Part shown: in pieces, positions 2,080 to 40,638 of the stretch
Numbering within the stretch: the stretch's first letter is position 1
How the letters are laid out: the number at the start of each line of letters is the position of its first letter
From: Thermoproteota archaeon
GTDB taxonomy: Archaea; Korarchaeota; Korarchaeia; Korarchaeales; Korarchaeaceae
Assembly: GCA_015522685.1 (NCBI GenBank)
Contig: WALU01000026.1
Location: forward strand, 1 to 44,525
Direction of reading: 5' to 3'
DNA length: 44,525 nucleotides
Notes under the pieces: generated by a model
The model's database searches: none
Told to the model about the DNA's origin: nothing
Seen by the model: only the letters and a program-made list of their open reading frames with translations
Position numbers and translations under genes: made by a program

Positions 2080-3618
2080 CTACGATTTTATCTTATTTAT
2101 TGAATCTTCTAAAGCCTTAAGCGATGCCTCTAATATATCTGGGCTCGTTCCACTGGCCTCCACTTCTCCCTTAGGCCCAAGAACTCTTATTAGAACCTCA
2201 CCTACTGCATCCGTACCTAATGATATGGCTCTGAGCCTGAACTTCCTGAGCTTGAAATCGGGTACTCCTTCCAGAGATCTTATCGTGTTGGCAAGGGCAT
2301 CTACAGGCCCAACTCCGAATGATGCCGCCCTTGTCTCCTTATCATCCATTCTCGCTTTAACTTGAGCGGTGGAAGTTATTCCAGAGCCAGTAACAACCAT
2401 CCATTCCTTCACCTCAAACCACTTACGCTTGCTCACTCCAAGTACCTCCTCAACTATTGATCTGAAGACTCCGTCAGTTATCCTTACTCCTTTATCCGCC
2501 AGTTTCTTCACTTCGGCCAATATCTCCTCAACCTTACTCTCCTCAACTGGGTATCCCATGTCCTTCAGAGATTCTATGACAGCAGTCCTCCCCGATAGCT
2601 TTCCCACCAAGAAGCGTCTCTTTCGACCGACTTTCTCAGGAGGTATGAGTTCATACGTAGCCGGATCTATGGAAATAGCATGGACATGTACCCCAGCTTC
2701 ATATGTATAGGTCAGCGGCCCAACTATGGGAGCCATCTCATATATTGGTAGACCACTATGCCTCTCAACGAGCTCGCTAACTTCAGGCAGGAGGCTTAAC
2801 TGTATATTAGATTCGACGTGGAGAAGTTCTTTCAATGCCACTGCTACCTGCTCTAGCGGTGCCATACCAGCCTTGGGACCTAGACCATTAACTGAGACGT
2901 GAACCTGATCTGCTCCAGCCATCACGGCTGCTATGGAGTTAGCTACTGACATACCCAAGTCGTTGTAGAATGCAGTGCTCACAGGCTTGGTTAAATGAGA
3001 TTTTGCCTCCCTTGTCATCCTAGCAGCTCCTTCTGGTGTGAGTATCCCTACAGTATCTGTAAGGTTTATTCTATCAGCTCCAGCCTCTTCGGCTTTCTTA
3101 CAGATCTCCCAGAGGAAATCAGGTTCGGATCTGCTTGCATCTTCGGCTGAGAACTCTACCATCGCCCCATTGGATTTGGCGAGGGATATGGAATCAGTTA
3201 GCTGCTCTATGGCCTCCTCCTTAGAGAGACGAAGCCTCTTCTCCAAATGGAGTTTGCTAGTCGGCATGAATATATGGACACAGTCCACCTCTCCTTCCAA
3301 AGCTAGCTCTATATCTAACTTCTTGGCTCTAGCCAGAGCACATATCTCAGCAGAGAAGCCAGCTCTCGATATTCTCTTCACTGCTCTTACAATATCAGAT
3401 ACTGCTTTCCTTTCACCCTCCGAAGCTGCAGGAAATCCAGCTTCTATGACATCTACTCCTAGAGCATCCAAATTCATAGCTATCTCTACCTTAGCCTCAG
3501 TAGAGAAGGAGATACCTGGAACTAACTCCCCCTGACTGAGGGTAGAATCAAATATCCTCACTCTTCGGGGAGCTTCTGGAACAGGATTAAATAAACTCAT
3601 AGGGCTATGACCAGTCAT
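2080..3618 (-). CDS. 2-isopropylmalate/citramalate synthase (LeuA/CimA) family protein with degenerate active site and intact C-terminal allosteric domain
   Basis: DRE-TIM scaffold motifs IEAGFPAAS, EFSAEDASR, DTVG and GKLSGR are present, as are the regulatory-domain motifs GVGPVDAL and DILEASLKA. However, RDGEQ is SQGEL, HxHND is AFYND and GERAGN is GPKAGM. An alternative start is ATG at 3600. Confidence 0.85.
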   Translation of the reverse strand: MTGHSPMSLFNPVPEAPRRVRIFDSTLSQGELVPGISFSTEAKVEIAMNLDALGVDVIEAGFPAASEGERKAVSDIVRAVKRISRAGFSAEICALARAKKLDIELALEGEVDCVHIFMPTSKLHLEKRLRLSKEEAIEQLTDSISLAKSNGAMVEFSAEDASRSEPDFLWEICKKAEEAGADRINLTDTVGILTPEGAARMTREAKSHLTKPVSTAFYNDLGMSVANSIAAVMAGADQVHVSVNGLGPKAGMAPLEQVAVALKELLHVESNIQLSLLPEVSELVERHSGLPIYEMAPIVGPLTYTYEAGVHVHAISIDPATYELIPPEKVGRKRRFLVGKLSGRTAVIESLKDMGYPVEESKVEEILAEVKKLADKGVRITDGVFRSIVEEVLGVSKRKWFEVKEWMVVTGSGITSTAQVKARMDDKETRAASFGVGPVDALANTIRSLEGVPDFKLRKFRLRAISLGTDAVGEVLIRVLGPKGEVEASGTSPDILEASLKALEDSINKIKS

Positions 3619-3647
3619 TTCTATAAAAAGACGGCCGCTAAAAATTT

Positions 3648-6206
3648 TTACATTTTTGCCCAGGCATCTTCCGGTCTGCTAGATGCCTTCATAGGTAAAC
3701 TGATAACTTCCATCTCTACTTGAACTGGGAAGGGTATAGGACTAGCCATTCCCCATATAAGGGCCTCGTGATTCGATAGCATTGCTAAATAGTTTGATAG
3801 ATCTTCTACTTCAGTATATCTGAGTATAGCATCTTGATCATTGCCATTCCTGAGCCTGAAAGCCGCTATTGTATTGGCCTGGCTTATCACACTCTTGCTC
3901 ACGTAGGCGGGCCTCTGAGTCACTATTATGAACCCTAGATTGTAACCACCTGCCTGACTTATTGCTTCTATTATTGCCTGAGCAGCTCCAGCCTCGTAGG
4001 GATCACCGACTATGTTGTAGCCTCTCTCAGGTACTAAGTACTGAGCTTCCTCCACCACGATTATCAGAGCAAAATCGCCTTGCTGCTTCCTAGATACGGC
4101 ATAGCTAGTAAGCCTCCTGATAATATCTCTAGCAGCGTAAAATTGATCATCATATCTCGTATCTGTGGAAAAATCCACTATAACAAGAGGATTCTTCCTC
4201 ACCTCATCTATTACATCGAGGCCCTTTCCCCTAGCAATGAATCCCTTAAATTCCCTCCTTAGCCTTGCATCGATCTCCGCCACTAGTGAGCTTCTTATCT
4301 TCATTTCTCGAGCTACTTGCCTTAAACTTCTTCTCAGATCATCTAGGTCTGGTTCTTCTCCTTCAGCCATGGATTCTTTAGCTGCCTCAAGTATGAGCCT
4401 ATAGGAGATGGTACCCTGCCTATATCCAAGCTTTCTCGCTATGTCTCTCGGCCTGAGGAGACCATGCTTTGGGAGAAAAGCAGAATAATCATAAGTAATG
4501 CCTCCTTTCTTGGCAAGACCGGAGTACTCTCCTCTCCTATCAAGTATGAGGAACCTTGGCTTCGGATTATGATATGATGATTTAGCTATTAGACTTGAGA
4601 CAAAGCTGCTGTTATGCACAAAAATTCCATTTGCGAGGAAATTCTGGGTTCCAGATACTTCCAAGTCGTACACAAACTCCTCTGCAGTATATACCTTTCT
4701 TATGCTGATTATCCTCTCTAAATCTACCTTTCCCCTCTGTATTACACCTTTTATGGGTGTTCTTCTTTTTACTATACTTATCGCCGATTGGGGTCCATCG
4801 CTAGCCTTAGTATAATACTCAGGAACCTCAAGTTTGCTCTTCAGCTCAGAAGCCGTGAAGGATTCAAGCCTAAGGCCTTTGTTGCAATGTCTAAGAACTG
4901 TAACCCCTAAAAGAGACATTACCATCGATAGCTCTCTCAGGCGTTTTCCTTCCTCCATAACAAAGATGAAGGAGTTATCATTGGCTATGAGAGGAAGTTG
5001 CTTGCGATTGAGGTACTCTCTAAGAGCCCTGAAGCGAGGAAACATGTCCGTTCCAGTAAAATGCCTATGATATGAAGGAAGATTCATTATCGAGACAAGC
5101 CCGTATGCTATGGCATCCATGAGTAGCTCCGATCTTACGATTGCTGCTTTGTATCCATAGAAGTTGCAATCAACTCCAGCTTCAAGGCAAGCCATTTTGA
5201 CATCTGCTGGACTGCTGTCCATTATTACAACCCCCCTTCCCTCATAGTCGGGTATGCCTGAAGCCAATGCTATACCTATCAGCCTATCCATGTAAGGGAA
5301 ATCGGATCTGGGTTCTGGCAAGTCAATACCCCTAAGCGAGATTAGATATCTGCTCTTCATTGCCATTAATGTCTTAGGAGTAACTGAGATTGCATGTATT
5401 CCATCCGGAGTAACAAGAAGGCTATGATCTTCTGTTACCCTTATTTTCTTCCCCGTAGCCGTCTCTATCTCATATATGTTCTTATCATTCATATGCCTGA
5501 GGGCTCCAGTAACCCTGCCCCAGCTCGGGACCATCCCCGATCTCAGTGTTGGTGTGTAGTACTCCCATCCCCTGAGATCAACTATCCCTCTCTTAACCTG
5601 CCTTGGAAGTAGAGGATCAATAAAACTCTTTATTGGGCCTATATAATACTTCTTCTTTTCTTTATTCCATAGTACGATTATGGTATCACCGGTAATACTC
5701 TTTCCGCTCCTCGTCATTCCAGTGACAAACATGTGTCCCCTAGCTATGGAGGAGAGATCCATGTGAAAGGAAACTTCGGTTCCCTTGATCCTCCCCACCT
5801 TAACAGGGAGGCCCCAGCTCACCCTCATTCCAAGGAAAGACATCATATCCTGCTTAGTTGGCTTGCTGACAGGACTCAAAGTTGAAGGAGGTGATTCCAA
5901 CTCTCTAATTTTGCCAAATTCGGGATCTCTATATCCTAAGACTTCACATTCAACTATTATGTACTCTAACTCGCTGCTATAGTCGGATATGAGGCCTGAA
6001 CTGCTTGCTATAAGACCAGTCCTGCCTAGATCAACCTCCTCATTTATGGTCTGTATATCTCTTGCCCTCAAAAAGACAGGAACAGCCTTCCAGGGGTGAT
6101 CAACCAAATAGAAGTCCCCCAATGCCACCTTAGCTCCCTTGAGAGCCACGAAAAGCACTCTCCTCGGGGTTGTATGAGAGATTACATGGCCGATCACTTC
6201 CCTCAA
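3648..6206 (-). CDS. herA: HerA/FtsK-family ATPase (HAS barrel plus P-loop) interrupted by an intein; about 489 aa after splicing
   Basis: N-terminal HAS-like region, HMFVTGMTRSGK|S Walker A, ILDRRGEY, IIVVEEAQ Walker B and IVTQRP...SQANT. It overlaps the nurA stop by 4 bp. Confidence 0.88.
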   Translation of the reverse strand: MREVIGHVISHTTPRRVLFVALKGAKVALGDFYLVDHPWKAVPVFLRARDIQTINEEVDLGRTGLIASSSGLISDYSSELEYIIVECEVLGYRDPEFGKIRELESPPSTLSPVSKPTKQDMMSFLGMRVSWGLPVKVGRIKGTEVSFHMDLSSIARGHMFVTGMTRSGKSITGDTIIVLWNKEKKKYYIGPIKSFIDPLLPRQVKRGIVDLRGWEYYTPTLRSGMVPSWGRVTGALRHMNDKNIYEIETATGKKIRVTEDHSLLVTPDGIHAISVTPKTLMAMKSRYLISLRGIDLPEPRSDFPYMDRLIGIALASGIPDYEGRGVVIMDSSPADVKMACLEAGVDCNFYGYKAAIVRSELLMDAIAYGLVSIMNLPSYHRHFTGTDMFPRFRALREYLNRKQLPLIANDNSFIFVMEEGKRLRELSMVMSLLGVTVLRHCNKGLRLESFTASELKSKLEVPEYYTKASDGPQSAISIVKRRTPIKGVIQRGKVDLERIISIRKVYTAEEFVYDLEVSGTQNFLANGIFVHNSSFVSSLIAKSSYHNPKPRFLILDRRGEYSGLAKKGGITYDYSAFLPKHGLLRPRDIARKLGYRQGTISYRLILEAAKESMAEGEEPDLDDLRRSLRQVAREMKIRSSLVAEIDARLRREFKGFIARGKGLDVIDEVRKNPLVIVDFSTDTRYDDQFYAARDIIRRLTSYAVSRKQQGDFALIIVVEEAQYLVPERGYNIVGDPYEAGAAQAIIEAISQAGGYNLGFIIVTQRPAYVSKSVISQANTIAAFRLRNGNDQDAILRYTEVEDLSNYLAMLSNHEALIWGMASPIPFPVQVEMEVISLPMKASSRPEDAWAKM
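4611..5699 (-). mobile_element. Intein (363 aa, residues 170-532 of HerA) with degenerate LAGLIDADG-like central region
   Basis: Block A SITGDT follows the Walker A GK. Block B is RVTEDH, block F is VYDLEVSGTQNFLANG, and block G is FVHN followed by Ser+1. LIGIALASG resembles block C. Confidence 0.92.
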
Positions 6207-7270
6207 TCAGTTTCACCCCTCTGCAAGGAAAACATGGCAGTTCTATCCGAGGAACTGCCTAGCTTCGATGATATCTCATTGACCATGAGCCTGTAGACAA
6301 GGGTGGCTTGCTTATCTGTGAGCTTAGACAATCTATCTGCAGCTATCAATGGAATTGGAAGGCCTGAAGATGGTTCTGATAGCTTGTAGAGCATTCCTGC
6401 TATTCTCTCTGAATCATCCAGCGCATATTCAGGCAGATCCATTCTAAAAGGCTTTGATCCTCTCCTGATGAACATGGCCCAAGGTCTGTAGGCCCTAGCA
6501 TCCTTGAGCCATGTTAGTATGTCCTCCCATTTGGGAGATATAGGTATAGGGCCTAGAGCCTCCCCATCCCTCAGGATACTTGATGCCATGAGGGTGTCAG
6601 GTGTACCACTTAGACCCAGCCAAGAAGATATATAAGTACTTCTTATCCTCTTAACTATACCTAGAACAGTTTTTCCCGATGAATGGGCGTTAACCAGCAG
6701 CTCCCCTAGGGATCGCAAGGCTGCATCGTAAACCTCAAAGTAGGCCTGAGAATGGGCCCTTCCTCCAGGACCATAATAATTTCTCGGCAGGTAGAGAGGA
6801 CCATCCAATATGACAAGATCTGCCTCATCCAGTAGGATAGATGCTACATGGTACATGAGATAATAGCCTAGAAGAGAGGAAAACTTGGAGCCTTCTTCAT
6901 CATCGAAGTAGGACCTGGGAGGCTTTAATGCAGCCACGAGGGGGCTCCTAATTTTCTTAGGTCCCTTGAAGGTGGATCCTACAGCTAAGCTGATGGGTTG
7001 GTAGCCGAGAAATAGGTCCTTTCCATTAGATCCTGCATCTACTGCTGCTATTCTCACATTCTCAGATGCCTCATCACTGAGGGATATTATGGGAAGGACC
7101 TGCTTCAGCTTTGGAGATATGTTCTCAGTTTTCTTGATCATCTCTGCTAGATTATCGGCTAAATCAGAAGCTATACCCCTTAGAAGCTCATGATAGCTTT
7201 TATAGGAGGTTATTATAGGTTTAAGGCGTTTTTCAGCGAGGTCGTATTTTTTTATAGTACCCTTTTTCAT
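6203..7270 (-). CDS. nurA: NurA-family nuclease (RNase H-like fold)
   Basis: IAAVDAGS, VILDGPL, GIVKR, a PDT motif and C-terminal GLPIPLIAADRLSK. It is translationally coupled to herA. Confidence 0.85.
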   Translation of the reverse strand: MKKGTIKKYDLAEKRLKPIITSYKSYHELLRGIASDLADNLAEMIKKTENISPKLKQVLPIISLSDEASENVRIAAVDAGSNGKDLFLGYQPISLAVGSTFKGPKKIRSPLVAALKPPRSYFDDEEGSKFSSLLGYYLMYHVASILLDEADLVILDGPLYLPRNYYGPGGRAHSQAYFEVYDAALRSLGELLVNAHSSGKTVLGIVKRIRSTYISSWLGLSGTPDTLMASSILRDGEALGPIPISPKWEDILTWLKDARAYRPWAMFIRRGSKPFRMDLPEYALDDSERIAGMLYKLSEPSSGLPIPLIAADRLSKLTDKQATLVYRLMVNEISSKLGSSSDRTAMFSLQRGETD

Positions 7271-7354
7271 GATTAATCCATTACTTTTATAGTTTTTCTA
7301 AATTAAACATTATTGGTTATCATAAGCATATATGTCAGGTCGAAAAAGACTTTA

Positions 7355-7368
7355 TTTTGATATCAAAA
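7355..7368. promoter_or_regulatory. 14-bp perfect palindrome TTTTGATATCAAAA in the nurA/regulator divergent spacer
   Basis: Read directly. A related half-site, GATATCAAA, recurs at about 7397-7405. Confidence 0.5.
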
Positions 7369-7408
7369 GCATTCTAGAGAATAAAAGATAATAGAAGATA
7401 TCAAAGTA

Positions 7409-7445
7409 ATTTTGCTAAATCAAAAGAATTATAAATTAGCAAAAT
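7409..7445. promoter_or_regulatory. 10-bp inverted repeat (ATTTTGCTAA-N17-TTAGCAAAAT) bracketing a TTATAAA TATA-like box upstream of the regulator
   Basis: The arms are at 7409-7418 and 7436-7445, with TTATAAA at 7429-7435. Confidence 0.5.
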
Positions 7446-7454
7446 ACATTTTGA

Positions 7455-8306
7455 TTGATGATTGTGAAAGGAGGGAGCGAGAGCAGCAGGTCTCAGTTAG
7501 GAGCTATAGGAAGGCTCCTTGCTCAGAGAAGAGAAAAGATGCTTAATCTTAGTGATTCCAACTATTTTCTCGTTGCTCCAACATCTGCCGACTTTTCCCT
7601 CCTGGATAATCTTATTTCCTCTGATATTGGAAGAATTAGTGCTGCTGTATTTGTAGATGATGGGTTGGAGGATGAGGGGCTTAAGGCCTTTAGGAGGAAG
7701 ATCTCAATAGTGACCTCTAATATGATAACTGAAGTTAAGCTGGATGATCTAAGCCAGATGAGCTTGATATATGAGCTGTCTGAACTAGCTAAACTGAAGG
7801 AGAATGACTTAAAGGGACTCATTGTGTGCAATGGCTTTCTTTCTATACCCCTGTTCCATTTGGCTATGTACTTAGATGCTAGAGCTATCGAGCTAGGCGA
7901 GTCTGGTTATAGAGAACTCATAGCATATCCAACATGGAAATTGAATGGAATTTCTCTTGCTATCCTCTATGTAGTATGGAAGCTTGAAGAAGTCGTTGGA
8001 AGAGCTACTCCACAAGCTATAGTCAAGTGCATCAGGATGAAGAGCAAGATTAAGAGGAGAGGGGATGAGAGATCTAAGCTAGTGAGCTTGGATTATTACT
8101 TGAAGAAGTATCTCATGAAGGATGAACTTATCGTCAAGCGAAAAGATCCTAATAGTAAGAGAGGAGTTGTATATGAACTCACTCCTAAGGGAAGGAAGGT
8201 TGCTCAAATAGTCGGGGCCCACTTCACTGCCTCCGGCATGGACCTTAAGGATATAATAGACCTAGAGTCGTTGAACAGCATGGTAGAGGTCCCAGTGAAG
8301 AGCTGA
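7455..8306 (+). CDS. Transcriptional regulator with an N-terminal Rossmann/CARF-like domain (Csa3/DUF6293-like) and a C-terminal winged HTH
   Basis: The C-terminal wHTH wing reads ELIVKRKDPNSKRGVVYELTPKGRKVA. The N-terminal part alternates beta/alpha, starting at FLVAPTS. The CARF assignment is by pattern only and the start codon is uncertain. Confidence 0.6.
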   Translation: MMIVKGGSESSRSQLGAIGRLLAQRREKMLNLSDSNYFLVAPTSADFSLLDNLISSDIGRISAAVFVDDGLEDEGLKAFRRKISIVTSNMITEVKLDDLSQMSLIYELSELAKLKENDLKGLIVCNGFLSIPLFHLAMYLDARAIELGESGYRELIAYPTWKLNGISLAILYVVWKLEEVVGRATPQAIVKCIRMKSKIKRRGDERSKLVSLDYYLKKYLMKDELIVKRKDPNSKRGVVYELTPKGRKVAQIVGAHFTASGMDLKDIIDLESLNSMVEVPVKS

Positions 8307-8746: not shown

Positions 8747-10576
8747 TTGAGGAGGGAGAGGGCGGAGGAAAAAATAGCCCTAAAGAGGGATATTGGATTA
8801 TTTGGCTCTTTCTCAATGGGATACGCCGATGTTGGAGCTGACATCTATGTAGCCCTTGGCCTCGTAGCTCTATATTCAGCTGGAGGTTCTCCTCTAGCTT
8901 TCTCCTTAGCGGCAGTACTCTACATTACCACTGGCTTGAGCTATGCAGAGCTGGCATCGACCTACCCCTATGCTGGAGGAGTTCAAGTATACTCAATGAA
9001 GGCATTCAATGACCTAGCTGGCTTCGTCGCTGGATGGATGATGCTCCTCTCTTATACCGTGGACATAACCCTCTTTGCCATGGCCTCAGCTGGATACCTC
9101 AGCTTCTTCATACATGCTATAAGACAATCATCTCAGGTGGGGCCTTTCCGACTAGGGAATCTTATAATATCTACATTGATCATAATCTCCTTTTTAATAA
9201 CAATAAACGTATTGGGGGTTAGGGAGTCATCTACCCTTAATGTGATGATGGTCTTTCCCAGCTTGGCCGTTCAGATGACTATTCTCCTCATGGGGTTCGC
9301 CTTCAACTTCTCCTTTCCCATGTTTCTGAAACAAATTTCCGAAATAGGTTCTCCTAGGTTCTTGGATGTCTCTTACATATCATTCCTAGATCTAAGAGCA
9401 CAGAACTTCATATACGGGGTCACCTTAGCGATGAGTTCCTACGTGGGAATCGCATCAATAGCTCAGGCCGCTGAGGAGACGAAAAAACCATATCGATGGA
9501 TCCCTCTAGCAGCGAAACTGTCAGTTCTTATGGTCCTAATATTCTCGATAGGGCTGTCGGTGCTCAGCATGGGGATGATGAGCTGGCAGGAACTGGCAGG
9601 GAACTTAGGGAGCCCCTTAGTCGCTATGGCCAAGAGAATAGCATATATAGGCAATCCTCTCTCCTATCTAGTTGCATTCACTGGATTTACAGTTAATTTG
9701 GCCTCAGCTAATACTGGGGTAATAGGGGTTTCTAGAATAGTTTTCTCAATGGCAAAGTATAACCAGATGCCAGGATGGTTCAACCAAATTCATAGCAAGT
9801 TCAGAACGCCGACCAGGTCAATTCTATTCTTCGGGGCAATTGGTATGATTCTAACATTCTTGGGAGGCTTAGAGAAGGTAGCTGATCTCTATACATTCGC
9901 TGCGCTCATAACCTACATCTTTGTAAACCTAGCGATATTTAGGCTGAGGAAAATAGATATGGAAGCATATAGGCCTTGGAAGGGTCCTAGTATAAGGAGC
10001 GTGCCACTAACAGGATTTATTGGCGGAGCAGCGGCACTCACAATACTCATCCTAATGATAATTTTTCATCCCATTGGTAGATCTTTAGGTACCTTCTGGC
10101 TGATCTTTGGCTTGGTCCTCTATGCTACATACAGGAAAGCGAAAGGACTGCCTGTCACTGGTAGAATTTACGCTGATGAAGTGAAGCCAGCAGCATATAA
10201 GATAGAGGTTCTGGCCATGGTTCCCTATGAGATACCATCCAGTATAGCAGCAGATGTATTACAGAGTTACTTCGACAGGAGACACCGTCTCTTCCTAGCT
10301 GATTTAATCTCCGCGAGAGATATGAATGAGTTTAGAGAATTAGAGTCGCTATCTATGTCGCATCTAGAGGAAGTTGCTTCAATTCTGAGGAAGGAAAGAT
10401 ATGAAGTCACTACGTTCATCATTAGAGGAGGAGAAAGAGCTCTCGCTGAAGAGGCAGAACCCTACGATTTCGTCGCGATATTCTGGAGGGGAAGGTTAAA
10501 AGGTAAGATCCTCCAAATCTCAAAAATGCTCAGCGATAGATTGAAGGGTAGACTTGTCATGCTTAGAGTGAGGTGA
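8747..10576 (+). CDS. APC-family amino acid permease with C-terminal USP-like soluble domain
   Basis: LKRDIG, SYAELASTYPYAGG, AAEETKKP, SRIVFSMA and HSKFRTP motifs, about 12 hydrophobic segments and a soluble alpha/beta tail. Confidence 0.88.
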   Translation: MRRERAEEKIALKRDIGLFGSFSMGYADVGADIYVALGLVALYSAGGSPLAFSLAAVLYITTGLSYAELASTYPYAGGVQVYSMKAFNDLAGFVAGWMMLLSYTVDITLFAMASAGYLSFFIHAIRQSSQVGPFRLGNLIISTLIIISFLITINVLGVRESSTLNVMMVFPSLAVQMTILLMGFAFNFSFPMFLKQISEIGSPRFLDVSYISFLDLRAQNFIYGVTLAMSSYVGIASIAQAAEETKKPYRWIPLAAKLSVLMVLIFSIGLSVLSMGMMSWQELAGNLGSPLVAMAKRIAYIGNPLSYLVAFTGFTVNLASANTGVIGVSRIVFSMAKYNQMPGWFNQIHSKFRTPTRSILFFGAIGMILTFLGGLEKVADLYTFAALITYIFVNLAIFRLRKIDMEAYRPWKGPSIRSVPLTGFIGGAAALTILILMIIFHPIGRSLGTFWLIFGLVLYATYRKAKGLPVTGRIYADEVKPAAYKIEVLAMVPYEIPSSIAADVLQSYFDRRHRLFLADLISARDMNEFRELESLSMSHLEEVASILRKERYEVTTFIIRGGERALAEEAEPYDFVAIFWRGRLKGKILQISKMLSDRLKGRLVMLRVR

Positions 10577-10577
10577 G

Positions 10578-10841
10578 ATGATGACTGTGCTCGTGATCGT
10601 GAGCATAAGAGTCGTGAGCAAGATGCTCGACAAGGTAACGGAATCTCTAAAGAAGTACCCGGAGATAATAGACCTCTACGAGGTTACTGGAGAATTTGAT
10701 GTTGTCGCCATGATTGAAGCTGAGAACGCGGTTGAGTTCAGGAAGTTCCTCAAGGATAAACTTCTCAAGGTGGAGGGAATTGAAACGACCCACTCAGTAG
10801 TCGTCCTGTATACTCATAAGAGAGGAGGTAAGCTAATTTAA
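10578..10841 (+). CDS. Stand-alone Lrp/AsnC ligand-binding (RAM) domain protein
   Basis: YEVTGEFDVVAMI and GIETTHS motifs, 87 aa, no HTH. Confidence 0.88.
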   Translation: MMTVLVIVSIRVVSKMLDKVTESLKKYPEIIDLYEVTGEFDVVAMIEAENAVEFRKFLKDKLLKVEGIETTHSVVVLYTHKRGGKLI

Positions 10842-11297
10842 TTAGCACCTAGCCTTGAGCCTCTGAGTAACCACAGCCGGGCATATCCTAGTGACTCCTC
10901 TCATCTTTGATATTTCCTCTATTATTGAATCCATCTCCTCCTCATTTCTAGCCCATATCTCTAGCATGATCGAGTGATCTCCAGCTGTTATCCAGGAAGA
11001 CTTAGCATAACTCTTGCCTGCTAATTCCCTAGCTACCCTGATCAGATCCCCTGGCTCGACATCCACTCCAGTTAGAGAGACTACATTGTAGCCTAGGGCC
11101 TTTGGATCTACCTTGACAGTATATCCCTTTATGATTCTAGCATCTTCAAGTTTCTTTATCCTCTTCCTTATAGCAACATCGCTTATACCAAGCTTACTGC
11201 CTAGTTCCTTTAGAGAGATCCTTCCATTCTCTATCAAGAAGTTGAGGATCTCTCTATCTTTATTGTCTATTCGAACTTCTAATCTTCTGGTTACCAT
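10842..11297 (-). CDS. Lrp/AsnC-family transcriptional regulator
   Basis: IDNKDREILNFL..NGRISLKELG..LGISDVAIRKRIKKLE HTH followed by a RAM domain. Confidence 0.92.
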   Translation of the reverse strand: MVTRRLEVRIDNKDREILNFLIENGRISLKELGSKLGISDVAIRKRIKKLEDARIIKGYTVKVDPKALGYNVVSLTGVDVEPGDLIRVARELAGKSYAKSSWITAGDHSIMLEIWARNEEEMDSIIEEISKMRGVTRICPAVVTQRLKARC

Positions 11298-33293: not shown

Positions 33294-33683
33294 TCAGAGT
33301 TCTCTCTTATATCTAGGATCTCTGATCACCAGCTTATTCAACTCTTGATCGCTCAGACCTCTTGTTTCAGCTATGATCTCATCTAACAGAGATTTGACAT
33401 TATCAGGTAATTTGGGAGGCTGGCACTTGTATTGAAAACATTTCTTTCCCTCAATTTTCTCGATACATCCCTTTTCTTCAAGTTTATCCATCAGCTCTTT
33501 TATTTCCTCTATATAGAAGCCAAATTCCTCCTTCACATATGTAAATTCAGTTAATCTATGCCCATTCTTCTCTAGGGAAAGCCACTCAGCCATTAGCAAT
33601 ATTCTGGAGATTCTAAATGGATGAACACACCCTAACTCAGAGAAGAGATAGGACAACAGATCTTCCTCATTCAATTTAATCAC
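33294..33683 (-). CDS. Hypothetical protein resembling the Panacea/SocA (DUF4065) antitoxin domain
   Basis: FRISRILLMAEW...GHRLTEFTYVKEEFGFY resembles the KLxKLLY..D...G..L....Y.....GP pattern. The C-terminus has GLSDQELNKLV. Confidence 0.5.
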   Translation of the reverse strand: MIKLNEEDLLSYLFSELGCVHPFRISRILLMAEWLSLEKNGHRLTEFTYVKEEFGFYIEEIKELMDKLEEKGCIEKIEGKKCFQYKCQPPKLPDNVKSLLDEIIAETRGLSDQELNKLVIRDPRYKREL

Positions 33684-34045
33684 CTAGAAACTACTTCTTC
33701 CCTTGCCTTGAGATTCAGACTATTAAATTAATGCTTTTGCAGGTTATGCCTGCTCCTTCAATGGCAATATAGTGCATACACTGATAAATTTATTTTCAAG
33801 TAGTATATGTAAATTATAATTAATTATAACTAAACTTGTTAATATCTAGATCGAATAAGGAAAAAATCATGATAACGAGAAACATCTTAAAGAGTTGAGG
33901 GATCAGAACCTTAGAAGGTCGAGGGCAGTATAATTCGATTATCAAAGATTTAAGCCTAGCCTAGCCTCGTAGTTAAAAGCCCAGATGAGTTGAGATGTTG
34001 AGAGTTCGCGTAGGCGCGCGATGCGGTGGGTTAGGAAATGTCCAA

Positions 34046-35011
34046 TTAAATACAATTCTTAACTCTCCTTACTCTCTCCCTCATATCGCCTAAGATCTTC
34101 TCTCTAGACTTTATTATGGTCTCTATGTGCTCTAATCTGCTTTTCATCTCATTATCTTCCATCTCATTAGCTAATTTACTTCTTAGAAATTCTAACTCTT
34201 CTTTTAGGTTATTTATCTCCAAGGTCAGCCTCTCCACATCCATTTCTAGATCAGGAAGGGCGCTCCTTAGCTTGAGATGAGTTGATTTAAGATCTCCCTC
34301 ATAGCTCGATTTTAGATCTAAATATTCACTATGATCTATCTTTCCTTGAGACCTCTTCTCCTCCAGTGCTCTCAGAATCTCGATCAATTCATCCCTCCTC
34401 TTGAGGATTTTATCTATACTGTTTATCTTTCTCTCCCATCTTTCACTTTTCATCCTCTTAATGGTCCAGTATAGCCCAAGGGAAAGTAATCCTGCAGCTA
34501 TGATGTATGCTAAGATCATTGAAGCAGAGAGGAGTGTGAGAATGAGAGTGATCTCCAAATGAGTTTCAGCTTTCCCTTCGTTAGATATTAGAGTAACTTT
34601 CACATCAAGATCTCCCTGATAATTGATGTATGGGACCTCTACCATCTCCTTTATAGCCTTCCTCTCTCCGGGCCCTATTCTAATTGGTTTATCCAGTGGA
34701 ACGTAATACTTTCCGAAAGGAAAAGACAGTGGAAGTACATAAAGATGAGTAGACTTTACTTCTAGATTAAATCCCTTAACTTCGATTTCTTTATTCTCCA
34801 AATTCGTTATATATAAAGTTAAGAGAATCTTATCTCCTGGTTTTGCTGTAAATTTTGATGGGAAGGCACTGATCTGAATGAGCTGAGCTGATACACTTGG
34901 AAGTAGCAGAAGAGATAGCACTTGAGCAGTGACAAGAACAATCAAGAAATGGCGATAAGTCATAAAGCCTACCTTCCTTGATCTTATTCGCTTCAGCAGG
35001 CCAAGTAACAT
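34046..35011 (-). CDS. Membrane protein: signal peptide, Ig-like domain, TM helix, cytoplasmic coiled coil
   Basis: Hydrophobic leader, beta-rich KPGDKILLTLYITN domain, TM segment, GKIDHSEYLDLK SHOCT-like motif and heptad repeats. Confidence 0.7.
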   Translation of the reverse strand: MLLGLLKRIRSRKVGFMTYRHFLIVLVTAQVLSLLLLPSVSAQLIQISAFPSKFTAKPGDKILLTLYITNLENKEIEVKGFNLEVKSTHLYVLPLSFPFGKYYVPLDKPIRIGPGERKAIKEMVEVPYINYQGDLDVKVTLISNEGKAETHLEITLILTLLSASMILAYIIAAGLLSLGLYWTIKRMKSERWERKINSIDKILKRRDELIEILRALEEKRSQGKIDHSEYLDLKSSYEGDLKSTHLKLRSALPDLEMDVERLTLEINNLKEELEFLRSKLANEMEDNEMKSRLEHIETIIKSREKILGDMRERVRRVKNCI

Positions 35012-35188
35012 TTAGGCTTCATACAGAGTACCTAAGGGAACTTCCTTCCCTTCATTTATATTCCTTCCTCCTCGATCAGAGATTTGGTTCTATACTATGC
35101 TCATCATTCCCTCAGAGCTGCGACCCATGAAATATTTAGGTAAGTGCTTAGATATTCACATACTCCTCAGGCTGGGGTTGATAATTCC

Positions 35189-37219
35189 ATGGCTTCACAA
35201 AAGGATTTGGTTATACAGGGAGATGTATTTGCAGGGCTGAATTATCTCCAAGATGAAAGCATAGCAGTTGCTGTAACTTCTCCCCCTTACTGGAGGCAGA
35301 GAGATTACGAATTTGAAGGACAAATAGGACAGGAGGATACCCCCGAGGAGTATATAGGGAGATTGGTAGCGATATTCGGCAGTCTAAGGCAAAAGATGCA
35401 CAAAAATGGGGTTTTCTTCCTTAATATAGGAGATAAATACTTCCACAGATATGGAAAATCCCATCTTTTACAGATTCCTTATAGATTAGCTTATCACCTG
35501 ATAAAGGACGGTTGGCAGCTGGAAGATGTAATAATATGGTACAAGTTGAATTATATGCCTTCTTCAGTAAAGGACAGATTCACTAATACCTATGAGCCAG
35601 TACTAGTATTCACCAGAGGTAAAGACAATATATATCGAGCTTTTAAGAGGAAAGAAACAAATGTGATCAGAATACCTCTCCAGCAGACTCCTTGGAAGCA
35701 TACAGCAGTTTTCCCGGAGAAGCTTGTGGAGGAGCTGCTTTTAAGGATTAAATTGGAAAAAGGAGATATAGTGCTCGATCCATTTGCAGGAACAGGCACC
35801 GTTGGAGCCGTAGTGAAGAGGTTAAGGGGGGACGTACTTCCTTCTGAGGTGAACTTTGTCCTGATAGAGAAGGGAAGCTCCTTTATTGATGTAATAAGAG
35901 AGAGGACTCATATAAGGAACGTTATGGGAGTGGGAGACGAGTCATATAGCTGGAAAGCCGCTAAAGAGGAGGATTTACCTGAAATCGAGCCTGAGATAGT
36001 AGCAGAGGATAGGCATGGTGAGGTATACTTTGCTGATTCTAGCTCAGAATTCTTGTCAGCTCTTAGGGGGATATCAACTGAGGAATTCAGGAGTTTTCAT
36101 AGGAAGAATGCCTTATATTTCTTCGGAGTAATAAGATGGAATATCGATGATTTATATTATATACATACAATTCGGAAGATAGGGTACGTCCTCAGGAACA
36201 TGCTTATTGCATCAAATGGCTCGGGATGGTTTCCCATTTTCATGTTCGCATCAGATAGCACGAGAATAGCCTACAGGTTCTATTTGGATAGAGTTAGAGT
36301 CAAGCCTAAAACACTTGAAAACAGGAACTGGTGGACTGAAGGATTCATAAGCCTTAAAGTGAGGGATATATCGGGCAAGAGGACCAGGGAAGGGAGATTA
36401 GCTCAAGTCATCAGGAGGTATGCTGACGGCTTTCCCAAGATAGTAGCAGTCAGGTGGGATGATAGAACCTCTTTAGAGCTCGTTTTGCATCCAGGGAAGG
36501 ATGAACTTTTGATGGAGGGACTTACCTTCAGGTGTCCAAGATGTGGAGCTAGATTAGAAGAGCCTTACGATCCAGCAGGTGGGAACTCGTGCCGAAAATG
36601 CGGTAAGCGCCTGTGGATGGATCTGAGCTCGGTGCCTCATGTAGAGGAGCCTAAAGAAGTTGTAGAAGCTATAAAAGAGATTGAAGCATTAGACTACAGC
36701 TATGGTGAGGCAGATGTCGAGAAGACTCATGCAAGAAGGTCCAGTAGGAGCAAGTTCTCCGAGTTGAGCAGGTTAAACTGGGGTGCCTCCCCTGGAGCAA
36801 GAAAACTTATAATTGGAGAATATTTCACAAAAATGAGACTCTACAGGATTGATCAGCCAATGATAGCTCAATATCTTAACCTTCTGAGAAAGAGTAAGAG
36901 TATGACAATCCAAGATGTAGCTAATTCCTTCCCACCGAGCTATCTGTACACAGTGGGTCACTGGTTCAGGAAGGATTTTGGGGGGTCTATTCCTATACCG
37001 GAGGATATTCCGCTCCTCAAGAATGTCTTTGGGGCTGAAGACGGTCTTCTATGCATAATCGAGAGGACTGCTCTGAAGTTTCAGACAGTAAGGACATCTC
37101 CTAAAGGGAAGAATCCTGGGGATTTCCTTGAATATTCTGATCTAGATCATCTTGAGGAATATCTGAGAAAATTGTACATGCCTTCATCAGAGTATTTGAG
37201 GCATATGAACGTCCCCTAG
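35189..37219 (+). CDS. Beta-class amino-DNA methyltransferase (N4-C/N6-A) with a long C-terminal extension (degenerate second MTase-like domain, Zn ribbon, HTH)
   Basis: TSPPYW precedes VLDPFAGTGT, with HTAVFPEKL between them. The C-terminal half has GYVLRNMLI, FYLDRVRV, CPRC-x14-CRKC, LRKSKSMTIQDVA and GKNPGDF. The start is set at ATG 35189. Confidence 0.88.
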   Translation: MASQKDLVIQGDVFAGLNYLQDESIAVAVTSPPYWRQRDYEFEGQIGQEDTPEEYIGRLVAIFGSLRQKMHKNGVFFLNIGDKYFHRYGKSHLLQIPYRLAYHLIKDGWQLEDVIIWYKLNYMPSSVKDRFTNTYEPVLVFTRGKDNIYRAFKRKETNVIRIPLQQTPWKHTAVFPEKLVEELLLRIKLEKGDIVLDPFAGTGTVGAVVKRLRGDVLPSEVNFVLIEKGSSFIDVIRERTHIRNVMGVGDESYSWKAAKEEDLPEIEPEIVAEDRHGEVYFADSSSEFLSALRGISTEEFRSFHRKNALYFFGVIRWNIDDLYYIHTIRKIGYVLRNMLIASNGSGWFPIFMFASDSTRIAYRFYLDRVRVKPKTLENRNWWTEGFISLKVRDISGKRTREGRLAQVIRRYADGFPKIVAVRWDDRTSLELVLHPGKDELLMEGLTFRCPRCGARLEEPYDPAGGNSCRKCGKRLWMDLSSVPHVEEPKEVVEAIKEIEALDYSYGEADVEKTHARRSSRSKFSELSRLNWGASPGARKLIIGEYFTKMRLYRIDQPMIAQYLNLLRKSKSMTIQDVANSFPPSYLYTVGHWFRKDFGGSIPIPEDIPLLKNVFGAEDGLLCIIERTALKFQTVRTSPKGKNPGDFLEYSDLDHLEEYLRKLYMPSSEYLRHMNVP

Positions 37220-37434
37220 CGCTTCAGAATTCGCATTTGCCTAATCATATGAGCTTGATTTATAGCGCGAAATGCAAGTCATGAAGCATAAGAAAGCGTT
37301 TATTTTAGTTCTAACAAGTAGCTGTGGATGAGACCTTCTAATCCAGATGAGATGGCCAAGGAGTTGAAGGAAGAAATGGAAGAAGAGTTCCAATAATCTA
37401 ATGATTTATGTGATTAGCAGGAACTCCTCAGAAG

Positions 37435-37782
37435 TTATTTCCACAGCTTTAACCCATGAACCTCCAGCCTCTTAAAGTGCTTTTCATTCTCAGTCCATAA
37501 GGGGAGTCCCTTCGCTATAGCAGTTGCACCTATGAGGAGATCTCTATCATCTATCAGTGAACCCTCCTTCCTTAGAACCCTCCACAGGTTCGATGCTTTT
37601 TTCAAGACGTCATTGTCTAATCCAATCATAATACATAGCTTTTCTAGGAAATATTTGGCTCTTGGAGGATCAACTTTCCCTCTGATGAATTCATAGAAGG
37701 TAACCACTGAGATGAAACAGGGGAGATTGGGGAAATTCTTCCTTTCCCTGTCTATATCTATTAGTATATCAGTATCAATCAT
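37435..37782 (-). CDS. vapC: VapC PIN-domain toxin
   Basis: IDTDILID, YEFIRG, DLLIGATA and TENEKHF motifs. Confidence 0.92.
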   Translation of the reverse strand: MIDTDILIDIDRERKNFPNLPCFISVVTFYEFIRGKVDPPRAKYFLEKLCIMIGLDNDVLKKASNLWRVLRKEGSLIDDRDLLIGATAIAKGLPLWTENEKHFKRLEVHGLKLWK

Positions 37783-37985
37783 TACTCCTTTAGCCTTAAT
37801 TTGAGCCTCACCTCTTCGTATGTAGAGTCAAACTCTATCTTTCTAAGCTTAGTTAAGGCTCTCTTTAGATTCTCTCTGCGATATGCTTCTAGCATATCGC
37901 GTAAAAACTCATCCCAAGTTCTATCCTCTTTCAAGTGAGAAAGCATTTCCTTGGTCTCCTTACTTATAGTTATAGTAGTTGGCAT
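37782..37985 (-). CDS. vapB: VapB-type antitoxin
   Basis: MPTTITISKETKEMLSHLKEDRTWDEFLR. It lies upstream of vapC and overlaps it by 1 bp. Confidence 0.8.
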   Translation of the reverse strand: MPTTITISKETKEMLSHLKEDRTWDEFLRDMLEAYRRENLKRALTKLRKIEFDSTYEEVRLKLRLKE

Positions 37986-38343
37986 ATTATAATTGAAAGT
38001 TGTCAATTAATAATTATTACGCTTCAACAGGGAAGTTAGCTGAAGAGTTATCCTGGCTAGCGATCATCATCTCGGCTTCTATCCCAGCATATTACTCTAC
38101 TCAGGGATCAGGGAGCTATTTGGAAGTTCGGAGAAGCAAACGTGTTTGAATTCCTTCTTTGAGATATAGCTGTTCTTAGGTCTACCCCTTAAGTCAATAC
38201 ATATGCTCGCTGCAATACTACTTATCAAGCATATAAGCCTGGGGGTTTGTTCTATTCTACTCTATTCTGTTCATCTTTCTTGTCCATTTAGCTGGGCACT
38301 CTGTAAAGCCAAACTATAAAATAGGCATCTACACAAATAGAGG

Positions 38344-39303
38344 ATGCAGAAATATATGAAAGCTCTTATCACTGGAGGAGCAGGCTTTATTGGTAGTCAT
38401 CTTGCCGACCGTTTGATGCGAGAAGGATATTATGTAAGGGCTCTAGATAACTTGGCTACGGGCTCTCTTGAAAACATTTCTCAATGGATGGATAACCCTC
38501 GCTTCACCTTCATCAAGGGAGACTGTCTGAACCCTAACGAGATCGAAAGAGCAGTTAAAGATGTAGACATTATCTATCACCTAGCAGCTAACCCAGATGT
38601 TCGGGTAGGTGCTGTAGATACTCGAAGAGATTTAGAACAGAATATAATCGCTACCTACAATGTCTTGGAAGCCATGCGCAAATCTAAAACGGCGAAGACA
38701 ATAGTATTCACATCAAGTTCTACCGTCTATGGTGATGCTGAAACATTACCGACTCCAGAGAGTTACGCTCCCTTGAAGCCCATATCCATCTATGGAGCCT
38801 CTAAACTCGCATGCGAAGCCATGATCTCAGCATACTCTTACATGTTTGGGATGAAGAGTGTGATTTACCGATTGGCGAATATCATTGGACCGAGAAGTAA
38901 TCATGGCGTTATCTACGATTTCGTGCAGAAACTCCTCAGTAACCAGAGAGAGCTTGAAATATTAGGTGATGGAGCCCAGAGCAAGTCCTACCTCTACATA
39001 ACGGATTGCATAGATGCCATAATATTTGGTCTGGAGAAATCAGAAAAGCAAGTTGAGATATATAACTTAGGCTCAGAGGATCTAGTTGACGTGAAAACCA
39101 TAGCCAATATAATTATAGGGGAAATGGGCCTCAGAAATGTAGAACTGAAGTTCACTGGAGGAATTGATGGTGGGAGAGGGTGGAAAGGAGATGTGAAGCA
39201 CATGATTCTAGATATTTCAAGGATGAAATCACTCGGATGGGGGCCTAAGTACAGCAGTACTGAAGCAGTGAGGCTCACAGCCAGGGAAATATTGAGACAG
39301 TAG
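38344..39303 (+). CDS. NAD-dependent epimerase/dehydratase (UDP-glucose 4-epimerase-like extended SDR)
   Basis: TGGAGFIGSH, TSSSTVYG, YGASK and GDGAQSKSYLY motifs. Confidence 0.92.
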   Translation: MQKYMKALITGGAGFIGSHLADRLMREGYYVRALDNLATGSLENISQWMDNPRFTFIKGDCLNPNEIERAVKDVDIIYHLAANPDVRVGAVDTRRDLEQNIIATYNVLEAMRKSKTAKTIVFTSSSTVYGDAETLPTPESYAPLKPISIYGASKLACEAMISAYSYMFGMKSVIYRLANIIGPRSNHGVIYDFVQKLLSNQRELEILGDGAQSKSYLYITDCIDAIIFGLEKSEKQVEIYNLGSEDLVDVKTIANIIIGEMGLRNVELKFTGGIDGGRGWKGDVKHMILDISRMKSLGWGPKYSSTEAVRLTAREILRQ

Positions 39304-39499
39304 GCAATTCATAGGGATAAATATGAGCTAGGTCAAGAGAGGATTCAGCTCCAAGTAAGTTACTATGCTTACAAGAACGGGTATCTTACTTTCTTTCTTT
39401 CATTCACCTTTGCTTTGCTTCCAGGACCCCCCCAGCTGTGAGAATTTGAAGAGCTTCATCTCAAGAATTTCTTCTTACCTCTAAATTGCTGAGGATTGT

Positions 39500-39732
39500 T
39501 TGTCTTTTATCTCCCTATAACTATAGAGAGAAACTCATCAATATTGGAATTACAGTAGCTCCCCATATAGTTAGTATAACCCCTATCACCCACTTGAAGT
39601 TACTGTGAATCTCCTTCCTCAGATCATTAATATCCTGCTTGGTAGATATCCTTAGATTGGCCATCTCTTTCCTAAGCTCATTAATGTCTCCCTTAGTAGG
39701 GTAGGAGAAATCTCCAATCTACCTTGCACCAT
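39500..39732 (-). pseudogene. Remnant of a coiled-coil, C-terminal-TM protein (DUF1640-like)
   Basis: PTKGDINELRKEMANLRISTKQDINDLRKEIHSNFKWVIGVILTIWG, with no intact start and a frameshift in the TM tail. Confidence 0.45.
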
Positions 39733-39938
39733 TCATTCGAGTTCTACTTAGTGAATAAGAAGGAAGCTAAAAGATACTTTACCAGAATCAAGGAGATAAT
39801 CAAGTATTGATATTATTTATGTGGCCCTAGGAAGAGAAGTAGAGAAAGCAGAGGTAAGTAAAAGATAGAAAGCTGATATTGATATGCGGCTCCAACCTTG
39901 TAAGAAGTTTTATTTGTCCTTCGAGGCATTCTACATAA

Positions 39939-40547
39939 ATGAAATCATATAATGATCTTAAGGTCTGGCTTCTGGTGGTAATCCTAGTGAGCTTGCTGTT
40001 CGCATTATCTTACCTGTATATGTCTAGGAGGGAAGTAGGTAAGGAGGAGAAAGTGACTATTCACCCTACAAAAGGAGCGAGCCTTAAGATAATTATAAAT
40101 GTAAGAGATGCAATGGGTCACTACTTGCAGGTGAGGAAGTGGGACGGAAAGGACTTTAAGCGAATATTAGGGAATGAGGAGTCCTTTAAGAAGGAGATTG
40201 TGGAGAAATTCAAGAAAATACATGGATCTTATGGGATATCTATAGAGAACTGTACAGCATCAATAAATGAGGGAGAGATGATCTCAGTTCTAGAATGCGA
40301 CATAAAAGGCTTCATATGCAGAAGTGGAAATTCTTATACAGCAGAATTTGAATGGCTGCTGGGTCCTCTCGGCTTGGACTTTCTAGACAATAAATTCGGA
40401 GAGAGTAAGGACTCCCTCTACTGGAATGGAACGATAAATGGGACAGCAGTGAGCATTTTAGTGAAGCTTCCGCCGATGAATAAGCCTTACGCTGCTTGGG
40501 GCCAGCCTAACGGTCACTGCCATGCCCATGTTTGGTGGAAGAGATAA
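39939..40547 (+). CDS. Membrane-anchored hypothetical protein with C-terminal HCHAH motif
   Basis: N-terminal TM helix, ending in AWGQPNGHCHAHVWWKR. Confidence 0.7.
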   Translation: MKSYNDLKVWLLVVILVSLLFALSYLYMSRREVGKEEKVTIHPTKGASLKIIINVRDAMGHYLQVRKWDGKDFKRILGNEESFKKEIVEKFKKIHGSYGISIENCTASINEGEMISVLECDIKGFICRSGNSYTAEFEWLLGPLGLDFLDNKFGESKDSLYWNGTINGTAVSILVKLPPMNKPYAAWGQPNGHCHAHVWWKR

Positions 40548-40565
40548 TTAGCTATTGGTTACTTA

Positions 40566-40596
40566 AGGGAACCATATTTTAAAAAAGCGGTTCCCT
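40566..40596. promoter_or_regulatory. 8-bp inverted repeat AGGGAACC-N15-GGTTCCCT around an AT-rich core upstream of the AAA+ gene
   Basis: agggaacc atattttaaaaaagc ggttccct, read directly. Confidence 0.5.
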
Positions 40597-40638
40597 ATGA
40601 TGGTATGATAAGGGCTTTTTCATGAAAAGAGGTAAGGA

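Follow-up and report, generated by a model that had tools for sequence, protein, structure and literature searches.

We investigated a four-gene locus in a 44,525-nucleotide stretch of archaeal DNA (contig WALU01000026.1 of assembly GCA_015522685.1, from a Thermoproteota archaeon of the Korarchaeaceae; hereafter the window), in which a regulator gene is divergent from a nurA-herA gene pair and a gene for a LeuA-like protein follows herA on the same strand (Table 1). The window corresponds to contig C26 in a genome of 1.48 Mb (1,477,694 bp, 63 contigs, 92% complete). Three genes form a unit at the core of the locus, namely a regulator with a winged helix-turn-helix (wHTH) domain that stands divergent from a pair of nurA and herA paralogues, which are translationally coupled as judged from their overlapping stop and start codons. 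An initial annotation of the window had given the positions of the four genes, a 4-bp overlap between nurA and herA, spacers of 29 bp and 184 bp, a palindrome in the larger spacer, and a TATA-like box in the smaller one. Each of these was found again, with the box at 3622-3629 where 3623-3630 had been given. In line with its statement that the window carries no mre11, rad50, or cas genes, the Mre11, Rad50, and Cas families gave no match in a Pfam scan of 36 window open reading frames (ORFs; shorter ones fell outside the scan). Rfam and tRNA scans of the window likewise yielded zero matches.

Table 1. Coordinates of the features of the regulator-nurA-herA locus and the adjoining LeuA-like gene (window positions)
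Feature	Position	Strand	Basis
LeuA-like pseudoenzyme gene, predicted (HMGL-like TIM barrel + HCS_D2 + LeuA_dimer)	2080..3618	-	Pfam, NCBIfam
herA/LeuA-like spacer: T5 run 3640-3644, TTTTTATA box 3622-3629	3619..3647	-	sequence
HerA-paralogue ATPase gene, 852 amino acids (aa) including intein	3648..6206	-	Pfam DUF87
Intein, 363 aa, HerA residues 170-532, in P-loop	4611..5699	-	Intein_splicing, alignment with intein-less relatives
NurA-paralogue nuclease gene, 355 aa	6203..7270	-	Pfam NurA
Divergent 184-bp control region, four TCAAA(A/G)-type boxes	7271..7454	.	box scan, shuffles, genus comparison
Perfect 14-bp palindrome TTTTGATATCAAAA (boxes 1a/1b), ~85-98 bp upstream of nurA ATG	7355..7368	.	
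Inverted repeat and boxes around regulator TATA box TTATAAAT (7429-7436); ATCAAAA box 7419-7425	7409..7445	.	
Regulator gene: divergent DUF6293/HFX_2341-type N-terminal domain (probable) and C-terminal winged helix; likely start ATG 7458	7455..8306	+	

The NurA protein matches the Pfam family PF09376 with 42.2 bits against a cut-off of 21 (E 8.7e-11) over profile positions 2-253 of 254, and it scored 42.6 bits in a genome-wide scan. Residues D78, G80, D156, and D312 are invariant across 13 relatives, and we take the acidic ones among them, D78, D156, and D312, to be candidates for the RNase H-like active site of NurA. A comparison of the NurA profile with the PDB matched no solved NurA chain. 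The partner protein, HerA, matches DUF87 in Pfam with 36 bits against a cut-off of 23.2. With the NCBIfam equivalogs NF040819 and NF040937, it reaches only 36.7 and 37.4 bits, far under the respective cut-offs of 970 and 800. Its motifs comprise the Walker A sequence GMTRSGKS, which is split by an intein before the Ser, an invariant VVEEAQ, and an invariant TQRP. The nurA stop codon and the TTG start codon of herA share the tetranucleotide TTGA, and a Shine-Dalgarno-like GGGGTGA lies 8-14 nt upstream. This arrangement indicates that the translation of herA is coupled to that of nurA.

The initial annotation had called the pair non-canonical and had proposed a check for a second herA/nurA beside mre11-rad50. 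A genome-wide profile scan yielded three NurA matches and six DUF87 matches, which include a canonical operon of nurA, herA, mre11-like, and rad50 genes on contig C16 as well as a third nurA-herA pair located on the 4.3-kb contig C37 (L011 518-3308), so the pair in the window is not the only one in its genome. Because the canonical operon lies elsewhere in the genome, the nurA-herA pair of the window is an additional paralogue and not the canonical repair pair. When used as a protein query, its NurA matched nothing in its own genome except itself. We also noted three further genes for DUF87/HerA-type ATPases elsewhere in the genome, for which contigs C32 and C49 are named. Among 79 metagenomic loci with relatives of the HerA paralogue, nurA is directly upstream of herA in 68. 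Ten of the 11 loci where nurA was not seen have less than 220 bp of upstream DNA, and the remaining one, L109, has 1.4 kb without a match. In a separate observation, the intein-less nurA-herA pairs of loci L102, L103, L105, L111, and similar ones have no divergent regulator before them; in its place stand an ORF of ~180 aa in the same orientation and another gene that is weakly NurA-like.

The intein interrupts the Walker A motif of HerA precisely between its Lys and Ser, an insertion point that was set by the intein-less HerA proteins of two genomes from other genera (G030 and G029). On its removal, the Walker A motif becomes continuous as it is in those proteins. The intein matches Intein_splicing with 61-64 bits against a cut-off of 35.8 as well as the C-terminal region model TIGR01443. 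Inteins have an N-terminal Ser or Cys, a TxxH block, and a C-terminal HN followed by Ser, Thr, or Cys. That of HerA starts with SITGDT, carries a VTEDH block, and terminates in VHN before a Ser, and no endonuclease family was matched in the domain scan. A P-loop intein occupies the identical site in four genera. If it splices as these blocks suggest, HerA would be active as an ATPase only once the P-loop intein has been removed. As a side observation, the HerA of G029 (L041 4370-6397), which has no P-loop intein, contains a different insert of ~140 aa after QRPAYVSK that starts with Cys and ends in HN before a Ser. By these residues, it looks like an intein at a second site.

The comparison of gene neighbourhoods that the initial annotation had called for shows that the regulator stays head-to-head with nurA-herA across the phylum. 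In the genus, 18 of 20 other genomes carry the regulator, with ~50% identity, and it lies head-to-head with nurA, with herA adjacent, in all 11 fetched loci and in genome G003. A word-indexed database contained no more than 14 relatives of the regulator. Beyond the genus, a gene of 238-289 aa is divergent from the orthologous nurA in G021, G024, G025, G029, and G030, which belong to other genera or families, and in G031 the regulator-nurA-herA adjacency is seen by coordinates only. In a 43-genome sample of the phylum, the three-gene unit was thus found in seven of 10 genera and was not seen in g3, g4, and g7, and the head-to-head arrangement is kept even though the regulators are only 14-30% identical between genera. 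Five genomes outside the phylum showed no three-gene unit, one of them carrying a PF19810 protein ~15 kb from NurA.

The regulator itself gave only weak winged-helix matches in Pfam, together with PADLOC matches to CARF3 (E 1.7e-4) and Csa3 (E 8e-3). Among 17 regulators of the genus, all 17 match HTH_27 and three match DUF6293_C. The genus-only profile and a joint korarchaeotal profile matched MarR-type winged helices only when compared with the PDB. The regulators of the other genera provide the link to a family. Four of five match HFX_2341_N at E <= 0.001 and that of G021 does so at E 0.0075, with two of the five over the cut-off, and matches to Csa3_N, Cas_APE2256, CARF_Card1, and DUF6293_C were found as well. 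Their profile matches the CARF proteins 3qyf and 7pq2 in the PDB at E ~2e-6, and hhalign joins the family of the window genus to them at 97.5% (E 5e-12, residues 64-260). The joint profile retrieved 171 representatives at E <= 0.001 among 1.84 billion. An alignment of 47 sequences, composed of the window regulator, three genus relatives, and 43 of the best matches, contains HFX_2341_N in 34, DUF6293_C in 22, and Csa3_N in 19 sequences, and its profile matches the CARF domains of Can1/Card1-type proteins, Crn1, Csm6, and Can2 at E 6e-9 to 1e-4. The ESM Atlas features of a 49% homologue score 0.85-0.88, all under 0.9. This evidence is indirect but consistent and suggests that the regulator belongs, as a divergent protein, to the Csa3-like DUF6293/HFX_2341 family, in which a CARF domain is combined with a wHTH. 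The earlier assignment of the divergent gene to a CARF-type wHTH family is thus supported, if indirectly, by way of the regulators of other genera.

The 184-bp spacer between the regulator and nurA contains four copies of an [AG]TCAAA[AG] box, compared with a mean of 0.23 in composition-matched shuffles, none of which reached four in 5000 trials. Two of the copies make up the perfect palindrome, which has a single occurrence in the genome at 0 mismatches. Moreover, the spacer is the sole place in the 1,477,694 bp, which hold 882 boxes, where at least four of them cluster within 110 bp. The uniqueness of both the palindrome and the cluster argues for a dedicated local operator, which we predict the spacer to be. 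Upon anchoring 12 genus loci on the TATA box of the regulator, we found a TTTTGA half-site ~70 nt upstream and an ATCAAA box ~25 nt upstream, as well as ATCAAAA directly upstream and TCAAAAT directly downstream of the TATA box (ATCAAAA-N-TTATAA-N-TCAAAAT). The DNA between these kept boxes diverges among the loci. The presence of boxes on both sides of the TATA box suggests autorepression. The regulator ATG at 7458 is ~25 nt from the centre of its own TATA box. A TATA-to-start spacing of ~25 nt is typical of leaderless mRNA in archaea, hence this start codon fits a leaderless transcript. We propose that the regulator would bind the repeated TCAAA(A/G) boxes of the spacer, that the two boxes bracketing its TATA box would bring about autoregulation by promoter occlusion, and that the central palindrome, located upstream of the nurA promoter, would set the transcription of nurA-herA. 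We infer both the binding and its effect on nurA-herA, in whichever direction, from this arrangement of boxes.

The fourth protein of the locus, the LeuA-like one, matches HMGL-like (E 2e-73), HCS_D2 (E 2.7e-22), and LeuA_dimer (E 3.7e-28) in Pfam. In NCBIfam, it passes the cut-off of the NF002085 subfamily (532.7 bits vs 517) and stays under those of all equivalogs (for instance, 416 vs 532). Its residues S28, Q29, A216, and Y218 align to the R, E/D, H, and H of the solved structures 6ktq and 6e1j, presumably the substrate-binding Arg, the metal-binding Asp, and the HxH of LeuA/HCS structures. The motif L-R-[DE]-G-E-Q has become L-S-Q-G-E-L and H-x-H has become A-F-Y. Further changes turned G-E-R-x-G into G-P-K-A-G and H-[EK]-[SA]-G-[IV]-H into Y-E-A-G-V-H. 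The trend is the same throughout the clade, with RDGEQ replaced by [ST][QL]GE[LMQ], HxH by [AT]F[YFHS], GERAGN by GPKAGx, and HESGIH by YEAGVH in 18 of 18 members. Catalytic residues are lost in 13 of 13 genomic orthologues. Among the 120 best homologues from a 5.8-billion-protein collection, 18 are of this dead type, exactly those with at least 57% identity, and the other 102 are intact. Motifs of the C-terminal domain, GVGPVDA and others, are invariant. A canonical LeuA, encoded on contig C29 of the same genome and followed by a LeuC-like gene, keeps all motifs and is 47% identical to the LeuA-like protein.

Of 20 other genomes of the genus, 18 carry an orthologue with at least 57% identity; 20 genomes outside it have none. 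In a LeuA tree of 32 rows, for which the first 65 residues of the canonical copy of the same genome were trimmed, the LeuA-like clade is monophyletic (Shimodaira-Hasegawa-like approximate likelihood ratio test support 100) on a stem of length 0.8, and its inner branching groups the genomes much as their canonical LeuA copies do, as far as genomes with both copies in the tree are concerned. The tree neither resolves the sister group of the clade nor separates a duplication in the genus from a transfer. The ratio of nonsynonymous to synonymous substitution rates (dN/dS) is 0.04-0.08, similar to that of the three neighbouring genes, and toward the next clade the LeuA-like protein is the best conserved of the four at 81% identity, compared with 65-68% for NurA and HerA and 46-48% for the regulator. 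A decaying pseudogene was rejected on these grounds, since the gene has no stops and such a low dN/dS fits a stable pseudoenzyme or neofunctionalised protein. We also rejected a role only as partner of canonical LeuA, because G003 (~99% complete) keeps the dead copy, and no canonical copy was found there with the LeuA-like protein as query. The replaced residues bear out the initial annotation, which had named the gene a catalytically degenerate LeuA homologue. The gene encodes a genus-specific, strongly constrained paralogue of isopropylmalate synthase that is, by these residues, catalytically dead. Members of the clade are labelled "2-isopropylmalate synthase" or "regulatory domain-containing protein" by NCBI.

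Between the herA stop codon and the first ATG of the LeuA-like gene lie 29 nt, with a run of five T just past the stop. Translation probably begins at the conserved ATG at 3600 (the M7 equivalent), for a protein of 506 aa. The TTTTTATA box is centred ~25 nt before this ATG, a box and spacing that the five closest loci share; in more distant loci, the start is preceded by different A/T boxes at 25-30 nt. No Shine-Dalgarno motif was found before ATG 3600, unlike at herA. A conserved TATA-like box at this distance from a conserved start points to a separate, leaderless transcript, as the initial annotation had cautioned in allowing the gene a promoter of its own. The LeuA-like gene is thus most likely run from its own promoter as a leaderless mRNA from 3600. 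In G003, the LeuA-like copy (65% identity) is on another contig beside a gene for aldehyde:ferredoxin oxidoreductase, and nurA, herA, and the regulator stay together. In G015, an insert of 0.56 kb that looks non-coding (L034 4854-5411) separates it from herA. The three-gene unit occurs without a LeuA-like gene in six other genera. Similarly, 49 of the 79 metagenomic loci extend 1.5 kb or more downstream; only six of these carry the gene, all dead-type and genus-like, and 43 do not. By its distribution and putative promoter, the LeuA-like gene is probably not a fixed component of the nuclease unit.

Taken together, we favour, with a probability of roughly 55%, the reading that the locus combines a locally regulated accessory DNA-end-processing unit with an independent LeuA-like pseudoenzyme. 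The product of the unit would be an accessory helicase-nuclease of the resection type. Use of the nurA-herA unit in repair or recombination appears more likely than use in immunity, and the two are not mutually exclusive. Several observations weigh against the favoured reading. None of the 17 genus regulators matches HFX_2341_N (PF19810) or Csa3_N. The ligand loop of CARF domains, which we take to have the signature N-x-[ST]-G-G-[ST] after the fourth strand, reads VNITGGT in G029 and G030, and in the genus of the window it is four residues shorter, with the pattern V-C-[NSA]-G-[FP], therefore the ligand switch may be lost or different there. Ligand control, which the initial annotation had proposed, is consequently plausible for the family and doubtful for the window genus. 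A divergent regulator was found at 13 of the 47 metagenomic nurA-herA loci with at least 900 bp of upstream DNA; other loci have co-directional small ORFs instead. Because 34 of the 47 lack such a regulator, the pair can evidently work without it. HFX_2341, the founding member of the family and the only one that has been studied, is a Haloferax repressor with many affected genes and a ligand described as unknown in the part of the paper available (PMC11434293), so a purely local role of the window regulator is not a given. Lastly, the LeuA-like gene adjoins herA in 12 of 13 assessable genomes including that of the window (11 fetched loci and the window were verified, a second G019 locus is known by coordinates only, and contig ends make six genomes uninformative). 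In most loci, the two genes are co-oriented with a gap of 21-46 nt, and herA transcripts may read through into the LeuA-like gene, whose neighbour on the far side varies by clade (radical S-adenosylmethionine protein, Ldh_2, or AAA ATPase).

This last group of observations also speaks for an alternative that we hold to be unlikely, in which the LeuA-like protein would be an accessory, metabolite-sensing subunit that modulates NurA-HerA and is co-expressed by read-through from herA. The ligand in such a four-part module would be a branched-chain amino acid or 2-oxoacid, bound via the retained barrel and the LeuA regulatory domain. The sequence conservation of the protein, the highest of the four, and its low dN/dS would fit, as would the replacements, which were concerted and then fixed in the entire clade, and the invariant C-terminal motifs. 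The dead copy of G003, with no canonical LeuA found there, further implies that the role of the LeuA-like protein is not tied to leucine synthesis. However, the TATA-like box at leaderless distance, the T run after herA, and the missing Shine-Dalgarno motif speak against read-through, and the unlinked copy of G003, the insert of G015, and the many units without the gene speak against membership. In addition, the neighbours on the regulator side (Lrp, orf245, and LplA) show the same degree of synteny in the genus, which makes adjacency within a single genus weak evidence. Of the suggestion in the initial annotation that the pseudoenzyme is an accessory part of the unit, the adjacency stands and the membership is unlikely. 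A more specific form of the idea, which we regard as quite improbable, is that the dead LeuA, a former biosynthetic enzyme that would have given up catalysis and retained its ligand pockets, would serve as a lineage-specific sensor subunit coupling DNA-end processing to branched-chain amino-acid or 2-oxoacid status. If this were true, it would, together with the cis-encoded Csa3-like regulator and the P-loop intein, place three stacked layers of control on one helicase-nuclease.

An inducible system against viruses or plasmids, in which a CARF-type sensor switches on a DNA-degrading HerA-NurA effector much like the HerA/NurA of type III CRISPR or bacterial HerA-based defence, is likewise an unlikely alternative to an accessory repair unit. 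In some archaea, HerA/NurA pairs are found together with type III CRISPR-Cas, according to the portion of the source at hand (PMC6546367), and the family of the regulator is related to CARF proteins. The last 130-180 residues of HerA are matched by PADLOC HerA models, with a best E of 6.7e-23. The genome also holds a 644-aa Cas10-like ORF with GGDD on the 3.6-kb contig C56 (1580-3514, minus strand) and two cas1 genes on C39 and C61, which makes cyclic-oligoadenylate signalling conceivable; nothing was found that links these genes to the nurA-herA locus. Against immunity, the window scan revealed no cas gene or known effector adjacent to the pair, NurA had no PADLOC match, the type III HerA model matched only at E 0.0076, and the CARF ligand loop is not conserved in the window genus. 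PADLOC gave no match for the LeuA-like protein either. A tblastn search found no match in 72,556 plasmid or 50,697 phage records, and the unit, in 18 of 20 genus genomes within a conserved housekeeping block, is unlike patchy defence islands. The near-universal presence in the genus, the housekeeping neighbours, and the absence of plasmid or phage relatives from these records agree better with a core accessory role in repair or recombination than with an immune island, and the defence unit that the initial annotation had envisaged is left unsupported. Least probable of all, the regulator could be a general transcription factor that does not control nurA-herA and whose boxes serve its own autoregulation only, as the many genes affected by HFX_2341 in the accessible part of its description (PMC11434293) and the flanking of the regulator's own TATA by the best-conserved boxes would allow, but the head-to-head order persists in seven of 10 genera despite the divergence of the regulator, the box cluster is unique in the genome, and 12 loci retain a half-site or palindrome in the part of the spacer that faces nurA.

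What is new here is the pairing of a cis-encoded regulator with nurA-herA across a phylum, with its own predicted operator, a P-loop intein, and a neighbouring LeuA that appears dead. Full-text literature searches, which did not cover supplementary gene tables, found no description of the regulator-nurA-herA unit or of the dead LeuA. The unit offers a clean system in which to ask which signal starts archaeal DNA-end resection and what accessory NurA-HerA paralogues do. The annotation of the dead LeuA as 2-isopropylmalate synthase in databases matters for metabolic reconstructions of Korarchaeia. As a clear, strongly constrained pseudoenzyme that derives from a core biosynthetic enzyme, it is also a candidate non-catalytic sensor.

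Two other parts of the window were noted. Beyond the regulator gene, positions 8747-11297 encode an amino-acid permease, an 87-aa protein that consists of an AsnC-type ligand-binding domain only, and a full Lrp/AsnC regulator; the permease and the 87-aa protein are confined to the closer clade of the genus. At 33294-44480, ~25 kb from the nurA-herA locus, there is a loose cluster of toxin-antitoxin and restriction-type genes. Its members are SocA/Panacea-like (33294-33683), a 691-aa N6/N4 DNA methylase (35144-37219), a weak PIN (37435-37782), an MCM/AAA-like ATPase (40639-41709), a pair of AbiEi-like and AbiEii genes (42092-43334), and PIN/VapC (44082-44480).

Compared with known enzymes, the LeuA-like protein retains the full three-domain architecture of 2-isopropylmalate, citramalate, and homocitrate synthases (6ktq, 6e1j, and 3rmj). 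It differs from canonical LeuA in its replaced catalytic motifs and in that its gene is not beside leuC or leuD. Bacterial HerA-based defence systems reportedly pair a HerA-family ATPase with a nuclease. The window has such a pair but neither cas genes nor a Sir2/DUF4297-type effector, its PADLOC matches are weak and partial, and its distribution is core-like and vertical. The HerA/NurA associated with type III CRISPR resembles it in joining a HerA-family ATPase to a nuclease and in a possible link to CARF signalling, as far as the consulted portion of that work goes (PMC6546367).

The canonical archaeal NurA-HerA-Mre11-Rad50 operon, in the excerpt available (PMC3326311), shares with the window a NurA-domain nuclease and a HerA-type ATPase in translational coupling. 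The pair of the window differs in that mre11 and rad50 are not adjacent and that no similarity of NurA to the canonical copy was detected at the protein level, and in its HerA the usual Walker B is replaced by EEAQ and the P-loop carries an intein. HFX_2341 of Haloferax mediterranei belongs to the same family as the window regulator by profile, with relatives carrying PF19810 and PF22665, and has the same two-domain plan. It differs in acting as a global repressor, the available text mentioning no link to NurA-HerA (PMC11434293), and the window protein is too divergent to match PF19810.

The closest parallel is Csa3a of S. islandicus, which, according to the sections at hand, binds a stand-alone nurA-herA operon at two promoter sites and up-regulates its HerA (PMC5587795). 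Partial accounts add that Csa3a also regulates DNA-damage genes (PMC7515695) and that overexpression of Csa3b raises the canonical operon as well (PMC7480081). Csa3a and its target SiRe_0094/0095 match the window in that a CARF-type wHTH regulator acts on a nurA-herA promoter apart from mre11-rad50, with repeated sites upstream of nurA (PMC5587795). By the same sections, the Csa3a gene belongs to a cas locus and its product works in trans at many promoters, whereas the window regulator is head-to-head with the pair, would fall in the DUF6293/HFX_2341 branch, has no CARF loop signature, and is associated with a box cluster that is unique in the genome. Csa3-type control of nurA-herA has thus been known only in trans, in Sulfolobus, and here the regulator, its putative boxes, and the target operon are packed into a single unit with phylum-wide conservation.

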